Part shown: positions 8,861 through 58,451 of the stretch, in pieces | How positions within the stretch are numbered: position 1 is the stretch's first letter | Layout: each line of letters begins with the position of its first letter | Assembly: GCA_019634385.1 (NCBI GenBank) | Contig: JAHQVK010000050.1 | Coordinates: forward strand, 20,072-84,071 | Direction of reading: 5' to 3' | Source of the DNA: Myxococcales bacterium | Lineage (GTDB): Bacteria > Myxococcota > Kuafuiibacteriia > Kuafuiibacteriales > Kuafuiibacteriaceae | Length of the DNA stretch: 64,000 bases | Program-made: the position numbers and the translations under genes | The notes under the pieces: model-generated | Database searches by the model: none | Seen by the model: the letters and a program-made list of their open reading frames with translations, nothing else | What the model was told of the DNA's origin: nothing

Positions 8861-8969
8861 ACAGCAAAGACCACTGGAATTGATTCGATTAGAATCAACA
8901 AGGGGTCGAAGCGCGGCAAAGCCCCGCGTATAATCAGGAACCTGGTTCAACCCAGGTGATGTCTGCTGT
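8861..8969 (+). repeat. MITE-like structured repeat, copy A (divergent full-length copy)
   Basis: Termini tACAGCAAAG...TCTGCTGTa. Internal palindromes ttgattcgattagaatcaa, gcgcggcaaagccccgcg and ctggttcaacccag. Lies 230 bp upstream of csrA. Confidence 0.75.
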
Positions 8970-9201
8970 ATGGCCTCCCTATCGAGGGCCACCGAGCCGC
9001 TAGCTTGGCAACAAACATCCCAACACTACTTATTCTCATGCTTGAGACTCTAGTTTTGGAACATCAGACCGTTGAACATAAATGTACGTGAATGAAACTC
9101 GAGACCGTCACGGCCTCGAGAAGAAGCACTCTCCAGGGAACGGAGAGATAACCCCAAGCGGTGAGCAACTATGCCGCCAACCATCAGGAGGATGGCCACA
9201 A

Positions 9202-9450
9202 ATGCTCTCTCTCGCGCGACGCCCCGGCCAAAAAATCCGGATAGGTGAAGACATCATTCTGGTCATCCGAGAGATTCGAGGCCGCCAGGTTAAAATTGGA
9301 ATCGATGCGCCACCTCAAGTGCGCGTTCTACGGGAAGAGATTTACGAGGAACTGTGTGCTGCGAATAAATTGGCTGCACAGCAAGGTACTGAACTGCCCG
9401 CCGTGCTCTCAACGCTCAAAAAGGACCCCAAGGAGGGATATGACGTATGA
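9202..9450 (+). CDS. csrA: Carbon storage regulator CsrA (RNA-binding global regulator)
   Basis: MLSLARRPGQKIRIGEDIILVIREIRGRQVKIGIDAPPQVRVLREEIY matches the CsrA consensus (MLILTRR..ESIxIGDDI..GxQVRIGIxAPK.V.V.REEIY). RBS aggagga at 9185-9191. Stop overlaps the fliW start (ATGA). Confidence 0.88.
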   Translation: MLSLARRPGQKIRIGEDIILVIREIRGRQVKIGIDAPPQVRVLREEIYEELCAANKLAAQQGTELPAVLSTLKKDPKEGYDV

Positions 9451-9977
9451 GGATCGTAACGCCTCGATTTGGCGAACTGGAGATACCAGAAGAGACCATC
9501 GTCTTTTTTCCCGAAGGATTACCAGGCTTTAAAAGCCGTCACTGGGTAGTTTTTGTCCGTGACGAAACGCCGATGATCGAATGGTTACAATCGGTGGACG
9601 AGCCGGAGATCGCACTTATGACTATGGACCCCGTTCGAGACTTATTACTAGACTATAGTCCCGAACCCAAAGCTGGGGAACTCAATCCTATCAGCGTAGA
9701 CTCAGTCCATGAGACTACGATCCGAATAATTATTCGTAATGCGGATAGTCCAGGACGGCTTTCTATAAACTTATTCGCCCCTTTGTTTTACAATGCCCCT
9801 CAACGTTTGGGCATGCAGCTGCCGCTGGTCGGCAGCGGATTTCAAGTGAGCGAATTATGGCCACCAGAAGAGATTGTAGCGATGTCACCATCAGGAGGCG
9901 TTCAGACCTCTCGAACCTCTGGTCAATCTATCGAGCACAATCGAAATCAGGATATGCAAAATAGAGCCTGTGAATAG
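9447..9977 (+). CDS. fliW: Flagellar assembly factor FliW-like protein (CsrA antagonist)
   Basis: N-terminus RFGELEIPEETIVFFPEGLPGF matches FliW. Translationally coupled to csrA. Confidence 0.75.
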   Translation: MRIVTPRFGELEIPEETIVFFPEGLPGFKSRHWVVFVRDETPMIEWLQSVDEPEIALMTMDPVRDLLLDYSPEPKAGELNPISVDSVHETTIRIIIRNADSPGRLSINLFAPLFYNAPQRLGMQLPLVGSGFQVSELWPPEEIVAMSPSGGVQTSRTSGQSIEHNRNQDMQNRACE

Positions 9978-13289: not shown

Positions 13290-14360
13290 GTTGTATCCTC
13301 AAAATAAAGGATAAACCTCACACAACATGTGTCTGAATATGATGGTTTCAGGCATAGCTAAGATGTCACCTCGGTCAGCTAAACACATGCGCTCGCTTAC
13401 AACCACATAAATCGAAAGCTGTTCCATACGGAGATGTAATGCTACGCCAATATGATTCATCTACCCCTGCCGTGTCCACCGTCGAACAACAGTATCTAGT
13501 TCAATTCCGCCTATCTACCAGACTGCAAGCGCAGACAATTGCCGACGACATTGGTCGTTCGCGCCCACATGTGCCTTCATAACCACTTTCGCACAAGTAA
13601 TGCACATCATACGTCGCAATAATAGGCAGGGAAGATAATATCTGCGCTCTCGCCACTCTTATTCTCACGTCCCAGACGTCAGTCGGAATGAGTCAATACC
13701 ATCACATTATTATCATACAGCGGTGCAGATATGAAACCCGCAAAGGATTGCCCCATGTGATCCTTTTCTGATCCACCTCGTGTTTCTCGCCGTTCTCATG
13801 ACTATCATTTGAAGGCATCAATCGGGCTTGCCTCAAGTCCACGGCCGATAGGGTTCAAGTGGCCTCGAACCCAGTCCTCCTGACCCAAAACCGACTCTAC
13901 AATGATAAGCCAGCGAAGCATGTCTCTCAGTCGTCTCTTCTCTTCTGCTCGATCCTGTTCTACCCGAATATCCAGACTCGCTGCGGTCGTTTCTAGAATC
14001 CAAACTCGACTCGAAAATTTCTATCGCTTTTGTGGACTCCGCATAGATGCTTGCCTTGCAAACATGACCTGCATCTCGCTGAAGCACCCTCACTGCAGAT
14101 ATTAACCACGGGTCAGATACTGATGATACTGCACCCAGTCCAAGTCATCTCCAATTGGATTATGCTACCTCAGCAATCTGGTGACGCACTTTTTGGGATA
14201 AACGGTCGACGTCGCCTGCTACCTCAGATACGGGTGAGTTAAGGATCCTGGGTGCTTCTCTATGCTTTCATTGTCCATGAAGCGAGTTCGTGTCTTTATA
14301 GACATAATGCATAGTCAACCTGAGGGCGTATAAACCCATCTCTGAGGGAGATGACATAAG

Positions 14361-31896: not shown

Positions 31897-32805
31897 TCAT
31901 GCGGGCGCGCTTGAGGCAGTGCGTTGCCGCTGGCCAGTGCGCCACGAATGCCGCCTTCGGCCTCGCCGCTGACGGGACGCCAGCCAAGCTCCCGCAGCCG
32001 GGTCGCGTCGAGGGCCGCATCCATCCATCGCGAGGAACGCGGCCAGCGGCCCGTTGGCTTCGTTCGCCTCTGACAGCGAGCGATGTCGTACGGGCACGCT
32101 CACCGCTTCGGCGATGGCCGTCCAGATCCCGACCATTGGCTCCGGCTCGAGCTCCGCGGCATGAAAAACACCGCGGGCCTCAGATTCGGCGAGCAGGACG
32201 TACGCATCGGCGAGGTCGCGTACATGCACGGTCGACCACCGATTCTCCCCGCCGTCGATAACATACGCGGCGCCCGTCGATGCTCCCTGCACCATGCGCG
32301 CGACCGGGCCACCGCCGTCGCCGTAGACGATCGGGGGTCGAACGACGACGCCTCGAACGGAGCGGGCGGCGAGCACCCGTTCCTCGGCGTGGGCAAGCCA
32401 ATCCAGCGGCCCCCCGAGCGGTGCAACATCGGACTCGACGACCGGAACACGGCTACTCCTCGCCCGCGGTGCTCCGCTGGTTGTTACGAATACCCCGCCT
32501 TCCATGCTCGCCAACATTGCTGTCACTGCAGCTTCGTCGATTGCCGCCCGCTGAGGTCCGGGGTCCGCGGCCGTGTGCACGACTCCATCGCCTCGTGCCA
32601 CGACCGCTGCGAGCACGGCGACGTCGGTCAAGCTCGCCTCGACGGGCGTGCCCCCGGCCGCGCGAACGACTTCCGCTGCGTGTGCAGAGCGAGCGAGGCC
32701 TCGCACCCGGTGCCCTCGTTTGACGAGCGCACGCGTCACCGCAGAGCCGATGTAGCCACTGGCTCCCGTGACGAACAGGTCCAAGGCTCCTTGATCGGCT
32801 GTGAC
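31897..32805 (-). CDS. NmrA-like / atypical SDR NAD(P)-binding oxidoreductase (in high-GC island)
   Basis: Rossmann motif VTGASGYIGSAVTRALVKRGHRVRGLARS. The region is about 70% GC against about 54% in the flanks. Start approximate: a GTG near aa 164 of the 465-aa ORF, whose upstream part runs into the neighbouring gene in a different frame. Confidence 0.6.
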   Translation of the reverse strand, partial: VTADQGALDLFVTGASGYIGSAVTRALVKRGHRVRGLARSAHAAEVVRAAGGTPVEASLTDVAVLAAVVARGDGVVHTAADPGPQRAAIDEAAVTAMLASMEGGVFVTTSGAPRARSSRVPVVESDVAPLGGPLDWLAHAEERVLAARSVRGVVVRPPIVYGDGGGPVARMVQGASTGAAYVIDGGENRWSTVHVRDLADAYVLLAESEARGVFHAAELEPEPMVGIWTAIAEAVSVPVRHRSLSEANEANGPLAAFLAMDGCGPRRDPAAGAWLASRQRRGRRRHSWRTGQRQRTASSAPA

Positions 32806-33016
32806 GTGGAAGACGACAGCCCCGGCCGGGGGCCTACGACGAAGACGCGGAACTCGGCCTCGAGGATGAGGGGGGAGGACGCTCTCGTCATCGACGATGC
32901 CGTGCTGGGGGCCATTGCTGGCGCCCCCACGTTGGCCGTCAAAGACGTCGAGACACTGTTCGCGGAGAACGAGCCGACCCCTAACTAGCTGACCATAACA
33001 GGCACACCCTAGGAGG

Positions 33017-33898
33017 CTACAAAAGGGATAGTTGAGCTCGATCGGAGGATGTTGGACGCAGTGGCCAGTCGGGCAGAGGGGCCATTTCGGGCATGACTTG
33101 GCACAGATGCTCATGAAACCGCCGGGCCAACCACGGAGCGTGGTGATCGTCCGGGGTATGACAATAAAAAAACGGTGATCGTCCCTCCCTAATCCAAATG
33201 GCCACCGTCTCTGCCCACTCACGTAAGAATGGATCACATTCTTCCACCTGATTACGACCGATAAACCGGACCAGCGGGTGCTGACCGAGTGCAATCTTTC
33301 TCACTGGAACCCGCGGTTTACGGGACTGTGCTTCCGCCGTGCTTGGATCCTTGGGAGGCAATGAAAATAGGGGGCGGCTATCAAAGCACACCCGTTCCAC
33401 GCCAAAATGGGTCAACAAACGGTGGAGATCCCTCTCGTTGTTCCCTTGGTCAAACCAATCAACATGCCGAAGCTCAACGGCTAGTGGACGGTCTTGGGGC
33501 CAGTGTTCCAAAAAGTGGCGAACCCGTCGCCCTGCTGATCGGCCCGCTGATGGGGGAAGCTGTAGCATGCAGGGCCCAAGACAAGACCCAAGCGGAGATA
33601 ACACCTCTAGGAACCTCGATAGGTCTGCTTCATAAAACTGGAGTGCCTTTTCATGGGTGATTGTCCGCGGCAACTTAAAGGCAAATCGAAAATGGTCAGG
33701 GATCTCCGCCTTCCACTTCGCGACCGTGGTTAGAGACGGCAAAGCATAGAAGGTGCTGTTACCCTCTACAGTGGAAAAGAGCTGCGTATATGCCGAAAGC
33801 TGCCGACTGGCGGTCGTATGGGGAGGCAAAACCGCCCCCACCCAGCTTCGTGTCGCAAACACCGGGCATCCCAAGCGATAGAGTGGCGCGTAAGTCAC
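33017..33898 (-). CDS. DUF72 (YecE-like) family protein
   Basis: The VEGNSTFYALP motif and overall pattern match DUF72. 293 aa. Confidence 0.75.
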   Translation of the reverse strand: MTYAPLYRLGCPVFATRSWVGAVLPPHTTASRQLSAYTQLFSTVEGNSTFYALPSLTTVAKWKAEIPDHFRFAFKLPRTITHEKALQFYEADLSRFLEVLSPLGSCLGPCMLQLPPSAGRSAGRRVRHFLEHWPQDRPLAVELRHVDWFDQGNNERDLHRLLTHFGVERVCFDSRPLFSLPPKDPSTAEAQSRKPRVPVRKIALGQHPLVRFIGRNQVEECDPFLREWAETVAIWIREGRSPFFYCHTPDDHHAPWLARRFHEHLCQVMPEMAPLPDWPLRPTSSDRAQLSLL

Positions 33899-34099
33899 CT
33901 CCCCATAGTCCGTGGTTTCTTGGGCAATTGCATCTCTGCCTCGGTTGTAACCTCCTCAATTCGGTCAACGATAGCGGTAAGCCCCAAGGCACTCACATGT
34001 CCAACGGCTCCCCACCGGATCACGATGAATCGGTGGTGCTCGCAGCACTCGCTATCGACTTTATCTAACCGCGGATCGCACGATGCCCATTACACTCCG

Positions 34100-38251: not shown

Positions 38252-38295
38252 GTAAGAAACGGCTTGTACTTGCACCTCTCCCTTCTCAGTTCCGT

Positions 38296-38408
38296 AAAGC
38301 AAAGACCACCTGAATTGATTCCGTTAGAATCAACAAGGGGTCGCGCAGCGGGGCATTGCACCGTGGAGAAGCTGGAACTTGGGTTCCAGCCAAGTTCTTT
38401 CTGCTGTA
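38296..38408 (+). repeat. MITE-like structured repeat, copy B (full length)
   Basis: aAAGCAAAGaccacctgaattgattccgttagaatcaa...cgcagcggggcattgc...ggaacttgggttccagccaagtt...TCTGCTGTa. Same three-hairpin architecture as copies A, D and E. Confidence 0.8.
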
Positions 38409-53187: not shown

Positions 53188-53236
53188 CAAGATGTCATCG
53201 TAGTGCTTGGTTTGGTACACTAGATGACCTTTGACA

Positions 53237-53347
53237 CAACAGAAATCACTTGGGTTGAACCCAAGCGCCTGCTTTTACGCCGGGCTATGCCCCGCTGCGC
53301 GACCACTTGTTGATTCTTATAGAATCAATTCAAGTGGTCTTTGCTGT
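53237..53347 (-). repeat. MITE-like structured repeat, copy C (full length, reverse orientation)
   Basis: Reverse complement reads tACAGCAAAGaccacttgaattgattctataagaatcaa...cgcagcggggcatagccc...cttgggttcaacccaagtgatTTCTGTTGTg. Confidence 0.8.
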
Positions 53348-53470: not shown

Positions 53471-55285
<1,815 letters not shown>

Positions 55286-55666: not shown

Positions 55667-55778
55667 TTAACCATATACAGCAAAGACTCCTTGAATTGAT
55701 TCTGTAAGAATCAACAAGGAGTCGCGCAGCAGGGCATTGCCCCGCTGCGAAGCTGGAACTTGGGTTCAACCCAAGTTC
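55667..55778 (+). repeat. MITE-like structured repeat, copy D (full length)
   Basis: tACAGCAAAGactccttgaattgattctgtaagaatcaacaaggagtcgcgcagcagggcattgccccgctgcg...ggaacttgggttcaacccaagttctTTCTGCTGTa. Confidence 0.85.
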
Positions 55779-56071
55779 TTTCTGCTGTAAAGGTATCGCT
55801 CGGCCTACTCTTCACCTGAGGTATGTCTTTTACGTCGGAGGTGCTCTATGACTCGCCCCCAATTAGCGAAATGTCCGGCGACCTGCGATCCCCCGTCTTG
55901 CTGCTAGCCTCTCCTTCAACTCGCTATGACCAACCTCGATCCGAGTAAAACATTCAGGTAAACCAAGGTATTTCGCAATAGTTCTACGCGGACCTTAAAG
56001 ACACGCCATAGTGAGGAATACTCCTCCATCAGTGATAGAGGAGTATTTGAACCACAAAATTAACCCACCTC

Positions 56072-57727
56072 TTACCGGTAGAGACGATAGATAGTGCCAC
56101 CATCTGTGAGAATATAGATCGATCCGTCTGGAGCTTCGGACAACTCTCGAAAACGAACATTCATATCCTCAAACATTTTGGTTTCGCTGATCACCGCTTC
56201 ACCATCCAACGTAAGACGTGAAATATGTCGCCCTGCCAACGCACCTACGAATAGGTTCCCTTTCCATTCGGGAAACATATTCCCTCGATAAAAAATCATC
56301 CCTGATGGGGCTATAGACGGCGTCCAGTAGTGGATCGGCTCTATGAAACCCTGTCCTGCATGGTCATCCGGAATCTGTTCTCCATTGTAATGGCTTCCAT
56401 AACAAGCTAACGGCCAACCATAGTTTTCACCTGCTCGCGGAATATTAACCTCGTCCCCACCTTGAGGACCATGTTCATGATTCCATATCTTTCCGGTTGT
56501 TGGATGAACAGCCATTCCCTGAATATTGCGATGCCCATAAGACCAGATTTCTGGCCTTGCATTTGCTTGATTCACAAACGGATTATCATTGGGAACCTGA
56601 CCATCAGGATGGATGCGGATGATCGTTCCAAGATGGTTATTGATATTCTGAGCTTGATCATACTCAAAATATTCGCCGAGGCCGATAAATAGATGCCCAT
56701 CCTCGTGGAATGCCAATCGACAGCCATAGTGAAGACCCCCTCCTCCTATTTTGGTGGCAGTAAATATTACCATCCAGTCCTGTAATCGCGCCCCATCAAA
56801 ACGAGCGCGGGCCACCTCCGTTCCCGACTGATTTCCCTCTTCTCCAGCGTAACAAAAGTATACATATTGATCTTGGGCAAAGGTTGGACCAACCAATACA
56901 TCCAGCAGTCCTCCTTGACCTTCCGCCTCAATATTAGGCAATCCGGCTAACGGGGAAGACAGCATGTGGTCGTTACCCAAAAGGCGAAGATTTCCCACCT
57001 TCTCTGTCACTAGAGCGCGACCATCAGGTAAGAAATCCAAGCCCCATGGCCAACTCAGACCATCAACAACCACCGCCATCTGAGGCTCTCCAGTTGGTAC
57101 TGGTTCGGGGACTGGCTCCGGTTCGGGGACTGGCTCCGGTTCAGGGACTGGCTCCGGTTCAGGGACTGGCTCCGGTTCAGGGACTGGCTCCGGTTCGGGG
57201 ACTGGTTCCGGTTCGGGGACTGGCTCCGGTTCGGGGACTGGTTCCGGTTCGGGGACTGGTTCCGGTTCGGGGACTGGTTCCGGTTCGGGGACTGGTTCCG
57301 GTTCGGGGACTGGCTCCGGTTCGGACGCACCGCAGCGCACACCATTGACCACAAACATTGCGGGCACGTTGGATGAGCTGCCATTTGACGCTCCAATAAA
57401 TCCTGGACTAACTGATCCACCGGAAGGAATATTGCTATTCCAAGACTCATGGGTTACAGTGACCATCTGTGATGAACTTGATTGCTCAAACTGTCCCGCC
57501 CACCCCTGAACAATAGATTGGGTCTCAGGCAATAGAAATTCTAACTGCCAATTAGTTATCGCATTAGATCCAGTATTTTTAATAGTTATCTGACCTTGAA
57601 AACCGCTATTCCAAGAGTTCATGATCCTATAATCAACATCACAAGAAACTTGAGCCCACGTCGGCGAGGTAGCAAAGATCATCCCAACCGCCGTCAGTCC
57701 CGTGTGGACTACCCTAAATATATTCAT
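56072..57727 (-). CDS. Secreted CBM2-(EPEPVP)n-PQQ-dependent soluble sugar (aldose) dehydrogenase (GSDH/YliI-like six-bladed propeller)
   Basis: Signal peptide. CBM2 ([25 protein letters not shown]...NGVRC). 20x EPEPVP linker. GSDH blocks [42 protein letters not shown] and [17 protein letters not shown]...[11 protein letters not shown] match the YliI/Asd family. Confidence 0.75.
57098..57325. repeat. 18-bp tandem repeat (ggttcggggactggctcc)n encoding the (EPEPVP)n linker
   Basis: About 12 near-identical units seen directly. They generate spurious repeat ORFs on both strands. Confidence 0.85.
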
Positions 57728-58065: not shown

Positions 58066-58122
58066 ACAGCAAAGCCTCCCGGAGAAGCCAGAACTTGGGT
58101 TCAACCAAGGGATTTCTGCTGT
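58066..58122 (+). repeat. MITE-like repeat, copy F (57-bp internally deleted derivative)
   Basis: tACAGCAAAGcctcccggagaagccagaacttgggttcaaccaagggatTTCTGCTGTa. Confidence 0.7.
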
Positions 58123-58321
58123 AGAAGGGAGGCTAGCACTGACTGAGAGCCGTGAAAACCAGCCATTCGAACCAATCCGGAACCGCTGAGAGCCCCGAGG
58201 CCGGACATTCAGGCTAATCCCCAAGACGAGCAATAGACCACGTCCGATGTTAAAGACACACCATTGTCGAGAATCGGTAGTCACTGAACGTGATCTGGAT
58301 CAATATTAAGAAAGACGGCAT

Positions 58322-58432
58322 ACAGCAAAACCACTTGAATTGATTCTGTAAGAATCAACAAGGGGGCGCGCAGCGGGGCATTGCTCCCCAGAGAAACTGG
58401 AACTTGGGTTCAACCCAAGGGATTTCTGCTGT
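58322..58432 (+). repeat. MITE-like structured repeat, copy E (full length)
   Basis: tACAGCAAAAccacttgaattgattctgtaagaatcaacaagggggcgcgcagcggggcattgctcccc...ggaacttgggttcaacccaagggatTTCTGCTGTa. Confidence 0.85.
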
Positions 58433-58451
58433 AGAGCAGGGGCAATCAGCC

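Follow-up and report, generated by a model that had tools for sequence, protein, structure and literature searches.

In the prevailing view, FliW is the ancestral antagonist of the RNA-binding protein CsrA and is dedicated to the flagellum, the switch that the two proteins form serving to gauge cytoplasmic flagellin and so to time filament assembly. Here we analyse a csrA-fliW pair (positions 9202–9977) in a 64,000-nucleotide (nt) stretch of contig JAHQVK010000050.1, hereafter the window, which belongs to a 'Myxococcales bacterium' metagenome-assembled genome (MAG).

The Hag-FliW-CsrA switch of Bacillus subtilis and Geobacillus thermodenitrificans (structure 5DMB) consists of proteins of the same families and fold (template modelling (TM) score of 0.90) and resembles the pair described here in having a CsrA with a C-terminal extension and Asn55 and in having adjacent genes on one strand. 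The two systems differ in gene order, which is csrA-fliW here but fliW-csrA in 42 of 64 loci from other phyla (the remainder being csrA-fliW in 3, fused in 4 and without a nearby csrA in 15). They differ also in that no flagellin or hook-associated gene lies near the pair here, whereas flagellin-like or hook-associated open reading frames (ORFs) are present at 47 of the 64 loci from other phyla. A comparable case is the FliC-FliW-CsrA module of the non-motile clade 5 of Clostridioides difficile, which is kept and functional without motility (bioRxiv 10.1101/2022.11.08.515568). There, however, the flagellin gene stays in the network and the loss is recent and strain-level, while no flagellin gene is known for the arrangement described here, which is clade-wide and ancient. 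FliW of C. difficile, which acts without motility and is reported to bind a non-flagellin protein, TcdR (same preprint), sets a precedent for a non-flagellar switch.

A further counterpart is found in Nitrospirota, where csrA and fliW belong to a flagellar late-gene cluster, flgM-flgN-flgK-flgL-csrA-fliW (loci L091–L093; also L043 and L071). The csrA-then-fliW order and the ATGA overlap between the genes are the same as in the window, and the Nitrospirota FliW proteins are among the closest outside the clade (~40% identity). Unlike the Nitrospirota genes, the Myxococcota pair lies away from flagellar genes and is flanked by an aspartokinase gene and a sensor-globin-like gene, or, in the window, by a tetratricopeptide repeat (TPR) gene and a convergent TSP3-repeat gene. 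Because order and overlap are shared with Nitrospirota, the Myxococcota bicistron resembles a fragment of a cluster of this kind, either relocated or remaining after the rest had gone.

The pair is best explained as a working post-transcriptional switch of two genes. On balance, we lean slightly towards a version in which neither the protein that captures FliW nor the main targets of CsrA are flagellar any longer, the module having long been outside the flagellar regulon. In such a switch, FliW would bind CsrA 1:1 and prevent it from reaching its target RNAs, as happens in Bacillus, Geobacillus and Campylobacter, and CsrA would be free to repress only once a third partner captures FliW. CsrA keeps both its GGA-RNA-binding residues and the Asn55 helix gripped by FliW. 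In this uncultured Myxococcota clade, the module would have separated at an early date from the cluster of late flagellar genes and would since then have been inherited in a fixed non-flagellar neighbourhood. A selected switch in such a neighbourhood would show that FliW-CsrA is a portable device for sensing proteins and not an accessory of the flagellum, most strongly so if the genomes lack flagellin. It would also provide a protein-level input to CsrA in a phylum noted for its gliding, pili, polysaccharides and development. The locus and its relatives also offer a candidate partner, a sensor-globin-like protein of the relatives, and a predicted autoregulatory leader, both of which are directly testable.

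Sequence and structural features of the csrA-fliW pair

The csrA gene (9202–9450, + strand) encodes 82 amino acids (aa) with a conserved RNA-binding core (aa 1–57) and a variable C-terminal extension. Its Shine-Dalgarno sequence AGGAGGA occupies positions 9186–9192, 9 nt before the ATG, and its stop codon TGA lies at 9448–9450. The fliW gene (9447–9977, + strand) encodes 176 aa comprising a FliW β-fold domain (aa 1–~140) and a disordered, fast-evolving tail (aa ~141–176). The fliW ATG (9447–9449) overlaps the csrA TGA to give the motif ATGA (9447–9450, + strand). These coordinates agree with the first-pass annotation of the sequence, which had described an 82-aa csrA with an aggagga ribosome binding site, coupled to fliW by an ATGA overlap. 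In the 19 distinct loci of the clade the junction is a 4-nt [A/G/T]TGA overlap in 14, a 1-nt TGATG overlap in two, an abutting TAAATG in one and a 10-nt gap in one. Judged from this layout, csrA and fliW form a bicistronic unit with translation coupled by the stop/start overlap, and such coupling should lead to the production of CsrA and FliW in a fixed proportion.

The two proteins, deposited as MBX2810891.1 and MBX2810892.1, are encoded on a 159,316-nt contig of the NCBI 'Myxococcales bacterium' MAG, which confirms the Myxococcota origin proposed earlier from the sequence. Their earlier identification as CsrA and FliW is upheld by the Pfam models (PF02599, 71.2 bits against a cut-off of 27; PF02623, 68.2 bits against a cut-off of 25) and, for FliW, by structure superposition as well. 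The NCBIfam equivalog models gave a different picture. CsrA scored 63.7 against 73 and 57.9 against 70.1, all below cut-off, and FliW reached none of the 'flagellar assembly protein FliW' cut-offs (79.6/223, 72.9/130 and 73.1/165), which denote the same function as characterised flagellar FliW. Since the Pfam models were passed and the NCBIfam equivalogs failed, CsrA and FliW are divergent members of their families.

FliW matches the Geobacillus FliW structure 5DMB_A with an E-value of 9e-13 at ~27% identity. The AlphaFold2 model (predicted local distance difference test (pLDDT) score of 86) superimposes on 5DMD/5DMB with a TM score of 0.90 and a root-mean-square deviation of 1.8–2.0 Å, and residues 149–176 have a pLDDT below 50, indicating disorder. 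FliW retains the canonical fold and core motifs. For CsrA, the PDB chains of CsrA/RsmE proteins, including 5DMB_D, align with the first 54 residues (E-values of 4e-11 to 5e-9).

CsrA (MLSLARR...VRVLREEIY) has L2, L4, R6, R7, V40, V42, R44, E46 and I47; of these, L2, L4, R6, R7, V40, V42, R44 and I47 are the RNA-binding residues of strands β1 and β5 in E. coli numbering, and they are conserved clade-wide. The protein is longer than E. coli CsrA (82 aa versus 61 aa). FliW-regulated CsrA proteins have a C-terminal extension carrying a conserved Asn55, and a hydrophobic residue at position 51 that touches FliW; mutation of Asn55 weakens FliW binding ~10-fold in Campylobacter and prevents it in Bacillus (PMC7829508). 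All 19 distinct CsrA sequences of the clade have Asn55, and either Leu or Met occupies position 51, which thus stays hydrophobic.

A longer CsrA model of 122 aa (P0055, also in NCBI) starts from an ATG at 9082 and covers window positions 9082–9450. The clade homologues all start with (M/V/L)LSLARR, and the start of the 82-aa protein at 9202 is favoured because both the homologue alignment and the Shine-Dalgarno sequence support it. We rejected the 122-aa model as over-extended; it would be translated through the predicted regulatory hairpins described below.

Clade-wide location away from flagellar genes

By Pfam content, the ORFs of the window comprise housekeeping, kinase, TPR, PilY1-like, cellulase and other genes. 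No flagellar Pfam family was found among the 41 non-shadow ORFs of at least 150 aa in the 64 kb, and flagellin N- and C-terminal seeds matched none of the window ORFs of at least 45 aa, so the earlier statement that the window holds no flagellar genes stands. The close relatives of the window FliW found by protein search form 44 clusters, all from uncultured Myxococcota or 'Deltaproteobacteria' MAGs, and a FliW scan of species-representative genomes recovered the same groups and no cultured myxobacterium. The clade is monophyletic in a neighbour-joining tree, which carries no support values. Among its loci, csrA precedes fliW in all 21 that have the upstream region, and a flagellin-like ORF within 10 kb was found at 0 of 22. 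The non-flagellar location is therefore a property of the clade (22 loci) and not a quirk of the window. Elsewhere in the clade, at FliW identities as low as 40%, the conserved order is aspartokinase-csrA-fliW-RsbRD_N gene; this alternative neighbourhood is old and stable, kept through deep divergence, and it speaks for a non-flagellar role of the switch.

CsrA and FliW also occur as single-chain fusions with CsrA at the N-terminus. One belongs to the Myxococcota-type clade (P0043, from JGI, 219 aa), and four are located beside flagellin genes in Nitrospirae (L065, 8981–9610; L068, 9794–10435; L069, 9788–10435; L072, 9788–10390). Such natural fusions provide independent support for the two proteins acting together, and, along with the conserved contact residues and the gene coupling, they suggest that FliW may bind CsrA directly and so block its RNA binding.

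Several fliW loci have no csrA nearby and mostly no flagellin (L024, L035, L049, L053, L058, L074, L075, L079 and L039). They come from beta- and gammaproteobacteria (Thauera, Azoarcus, Chitinimonas, Rhodocyclaceae and Sedimenticola), and their FliW proteins form the sister group of the Myxococcota-type FliW in the neighbour-joining tree. Thauera, Azoarcus and Chitinimonas are flagellated genera.

The location of the pair bears directly on an alternative in which FliW serves canonical flagellin homeostasis, with flagellin encoded outside the window, either as part of a complete flagellar system or by itself, the situation in non-motile C. difficile. FliW would then shuttle between flagellin and CsrA just as it does in Bacillus, and nothing but the place of csrA-fliW on the chromosome would be unusual. 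The unchanged CsrA Asn55 and FliW core motifs fit this explanation. We nevertheless regard it as possible but rather unlikely: no flagellar gene lies in the 64 kb or within 10 kb at any of the 22 clade loci, a different neighbourhood has been kept down to ~40% FliW identity, and FliW falls far below every NCBIfam flagellar FliW equivalog cut-off. Flagella are also unmentioned in papers on Ca. Kuafubacteriaceae MAGs, which is weak evidence. Searches of the literature found no link of FliW or CsrA to Myxococcota and no usable flagellar gene tables, supplements included, for Ca. Kuafubacteriaceae, activated-sludge Myxococcota or seamount MAGs. A FlgK probe from the nearest relative with a flagellar context returned Nitrospirota only among the matches listed and is uninformative on Myxococcota.

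A number of observations weigh against a non-flagellar switch, several of which favour flagellin homeostasis at the same time. Flagellin is the canonical partner of FliW, and flagellin mRNA is the main target of CsrA in FliW bacteria (PMC6070490); the only other partner reported is TcdR, in the C. difficile preprint. Location alone is weak evidence, because orphan fliW occurs in flagellated beta- and gammaproteobacteria. One preprint reports that some anaerobic uncultured Myxococcota MAGs encode flagellar assembly genes. The first-pass annotation had argued from the taxon that the lineage usually moves by gliding or type IV pili, and of this argument the assignment to Myxococcota stood. The remainder is weaker than assumed, because part of the clade is Ca. 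Kuafubacteriaceae, which forms a lineage of class rank (GTDB WYAZ01) distinct from the myxobacteria in culture, which lack flagella. Within the window, no candidate partner or target was found. The case for RNA binding, for FliW-CsrA binding and for autoregulation is built on sequence, and the four dual-hairpin leaders described below are related and therefore count as one conserved feature rather than four independent observations. Even with these points, we regard a FliW partner and main CsrA targets that are non-flagellar as somewhat more likely than not.

Purifying selection on both genes

Selection was assessed by comparing the window with its three closest relatives, L002, L008 and L009 (64–70% FliW identity). 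Synonymous sites are saturated in these comparisons (proportion of synonymous differences (pS) of 0.76–0.9). In the CsrA core, the proportion of nonsynonymous differences (pN) is 0.02–0.05 against a pS of 0.8–0.9, and in the FliW domain it is 0.15–0.17 against a pS of 0.76–0.88. The FliW tail, with a pN of 0.5–0.6, is the sole freely evolving part. The csrA and fliW frames are unbroken at every locus. This pattern of substitution indicates that both genes are under purifying selection, and because the proteins are conserved while synonymous sites are saturated, the pair does not appear to be a relic.

That the pair might be left over from a lost flagellar system and no longer function could be suggested by the absence of the flagellar context and by CsrA and FliW scores below the NCBIfam equivalog cut-offs. 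This explanation is already contradicted by the selection analysis, in which pN lies far below pS despite synonymous saturation, and by the frames that are intact in every locus. Conservation extends to the key residues, to the stop/start overlap and to the hairpins of the leader, and the clade is old and broad. We therefore consider a relic highly improbable.

The same comparison bears on a two-component buffer without a third partner, in which FliW would be a co-expressed stoichiometric antagonist of CsrA, comparable to an antitoxin-toxin pair, and the level of free CsrA would depend on a difference in stability between the two proteins, for instance if FliW were degraded through its disordered tail, or on uncoupling of translation. 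The tight translational coupling conserved clade-wide, the natural fusions (P0043 and the four Nitrospirae loci) and the disordered, fast-evolving C-terminal tail of FliW are consistent with such a buffer. No precedent for it is known, and the FliW surface beyond the CsrA contact is conserved (domain pN of 0.15–0.17), which suggests constraints beyond that contact. The tail is unlikely to act as a regulated degron because it is not conserved. We judge a buffer of this kind to be improbable.

Predicted autoregulation by the csrA leader

In the classic layout of repression by a CsrA dimer, one GGA is presented in a hairpin loop and a second GGA covers the ribosome binding site. In E. coli, which has no FliW, the small RNAs CsrB and CsrC antagonise CsrA. 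The csrA leader of the window contains two hairpins within 75 nt before the csrA start. The first, CUCUCC-AGGGAAC-GGAGAG (9129–9147, + strand), carries a GGA in its loop and is a predicted upstream CsrA site. The second, CCAUC-AGGAG-GAUGG (9181–9195, + strand), holds the Shine-Dalgarno sequence in its loop and is a predicted second CsrA site, at which binding would occlude the ribosome binding site. As in the E. coli Csr system, a hairpin-loop GGA is thus combined with a second GGA overlapping the Shine-Dalgarno sequence, the two being ~40 nt apart here, a distance that fits bridging by a CsrA dimer.

A GGA-loop hairpin is found at the equivalent position in L002, L008 and L009; its stems are unrelated in sequence, while the loop AGGRA is kept, and the Shine-Dalgarno hairpin is likewise conserved in these three loci. 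Dual hairpins of this type occur in all four leaders of the subclade versus 1 of 553 control ORF starts in the same loci, and in 0.44% of random 130-nt windows. From this arrangement we infer that CsrA represses its own operon via the two leader GGA hairpins, in which case it would also repress its own antagonist. Unlike in E. coli, the antagonist here is a protein from the same operon. Among the ORF starts of the window, that of csrA is the only one to show the dual-hairpin pattern. The csrA leader and the upstream repeat described below gave no match in Rfam at E-values up to 1.

Directly upstream of the GGA hairpin, the csrA leader also contains a perfect 10-bp hairpin, CTCGAGACCG-TCA-CGGCCTCGAG (9098–9120). 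This hairpin was flagged as terminator-like on the opposite strand.

Gene neighbourhood and a 169-aa sensor-globin-like protein

The window is syntenic with a 6.05-Mb contig, in the order SpoVR, SbcD, SbcC, TPR gene, csrA, fliW ... EVE, MiaE. In many relatives, a gene for a 169-aa RsbRD_N-domain protein follows directly after fliW, often overlapping it (L003, 10582–11091; L004, 10483–10992; L087, 4562–5071; L089, 3567–4076; L002, 13274–13783; L008, 2030–2539). The protein has a predicted sensor-globin-like fold and is confined to uncultured Myxococcota, where most of its genes share a contig with fliW. Its sequence identity is 83–95% in most loci and 62–69% in L010 and L008, and the high identity extends to loci whose FliW shares only 40–50% with that of the window. 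The C-terminus, ...NQKFGVDLSKFILFKG, is highly conserved, with DLSKFILF.G nearly invariant. No consistent GGA or Shine-Dalgarno motif was found upstream of the gene.

In deeper-branching members of the clade, the RsbRD_N gene is followed by genes for a TPR protein, an FHA-tyrosine-autokinase-like protein, a polysaccharide deacetylase and glycosyltransferases. The deacetylase is of the XrtA-system type (TIGR03006, 336 bits against a cut-off of 276). This cluster downstream of csrA-fliW-RsbRD_N (L087, 8751–11020; L004, 14527–16309; L003, 13543–14397; L021, 14725–16993) suggests, by its conservation, a link of the module to exopolysaccharide production. The polysaccharide cluster is not in the window.

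These neighbours lead to a broader and more tentative reading, in which a whole uncultured Myxococcota lineage without flagellin would re-use the FliW-CsrA switch with a new FliW partner and with CsrA acting on other mRNAs; we consider it doubtful in this full form. The 169-aa sensor-globin-like protein of the relatives would be the best partner candidate. Besides its own operon, CsrA would control, for example, mRNAs from the neighbouring polysaccharide cluster of XrtA type, and the window would represent a derived state in which the partner gene is no longer linked. For the FliW-flagellin interface itself, hydrogen-deuterium exchange and small-angle X-ray scattering data have been published, with no atomic interface (PMC6070490). 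The 169-aa protein was also considered as a flagellin mimic; this was rejected at the sequence level, where the profile-profile probability was 0.07%.

A tblastn search of the 64 kb, including the ORF-free gap at 13290–14360, found neither the RsbRD_N gene nor the aspartokinase gene in the window. The window keeps the flanking TPR genes though it lacks these two, and three reverse-strand genes are inserted after fliW. The gap (~1.07 kb) contains no ORF of more than 86 aa and lies between a PEGA-kinase gene and a 654-aa TPR gene. It is the position at which relatives carry the RsbRD_N gene and a gene of ~245–290 aa, of neither of which tblastn detected a remnant.

A MITE-like repeat upstream of csrA

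A MITE-like (miniature inverted-repeat transposable element) repeat of ~110 nt, copy A, lies upstream of csrA (8861–8969, + strand), with terminal inverted repeats ACAGCA...TGCTGT, a closing stem and three hairpins. Its distance from the csrA ATG is 232 nt, in line with the ~230 bp given in the first-pass annotation. Four further full copies of the same structured repeat are present in the window, three on the + strand (38295–38408, 55676–55789 and 58320–58433) and one on the − strand (53236–53347), making five full copies against a chance expectation of none. Every copy is intergenic, and both orientations relative to the neighbouring genes are represented. TA is present at both ends in four of the five copies, and the terminal inverted repeats are 7 nt long. 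The folding z-scores range from −2.8 to −9.7, and the consensus structure has 38 pairs, of which 3 show compensatory changes. None of the 93 loci fetched from relatives contains the repeat core. The repeat behaves like a recently spread MITE or a REP-like (repetitive extragenic palindromic) element of this genome.

The suggestion that the repeat contributes a promoter or structured leader to csrA found no support, as it is missing from related loci and occurs in both orientations relative to its neighbours. Nor does a regulatory role agree with the position of the conserved leader elements, which lie downstream of the repeat, within 75 nt of the csrA start. A sigma-70 scan of the + strand between the repeat and csrA identified no site, with the proviso that Myxococcota promoters may not fit the consensus.

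In hairpin 1, copies C and E differ by a double compensatory change read from the sequences, GACUCCUUG/CAAGGAGUC versus GACCACUUG/CAAGUGGUC; the consensus-structure table counts one of these two pairs as compensatory. A partial copy of the repeat is located at 58069–58111, and three copies cluster around two CBM2-domain genes at 53–58 kb.

Other features of the window

The two CBM2-domain genes encode secreted proteins (a GH6 cellulase and a glucose/sorbosone dehydrogenase) and contain 18-nt tandem repeats at 57059–57364 (12 copies) and 54731–54892 (4 copies), in a region matched by Pfam as a proline-rich linker. An RNA-family scan of the whole window returned one tRNA only. The G+C content peaks at 0.617 at 32001–34000, versus ~0.52 elsewhere in the window, and this peak spans an epimerase-like gene (31897–33294, − strand) and a DUF72 gene; the strand opposite carries a long shadow ORF.

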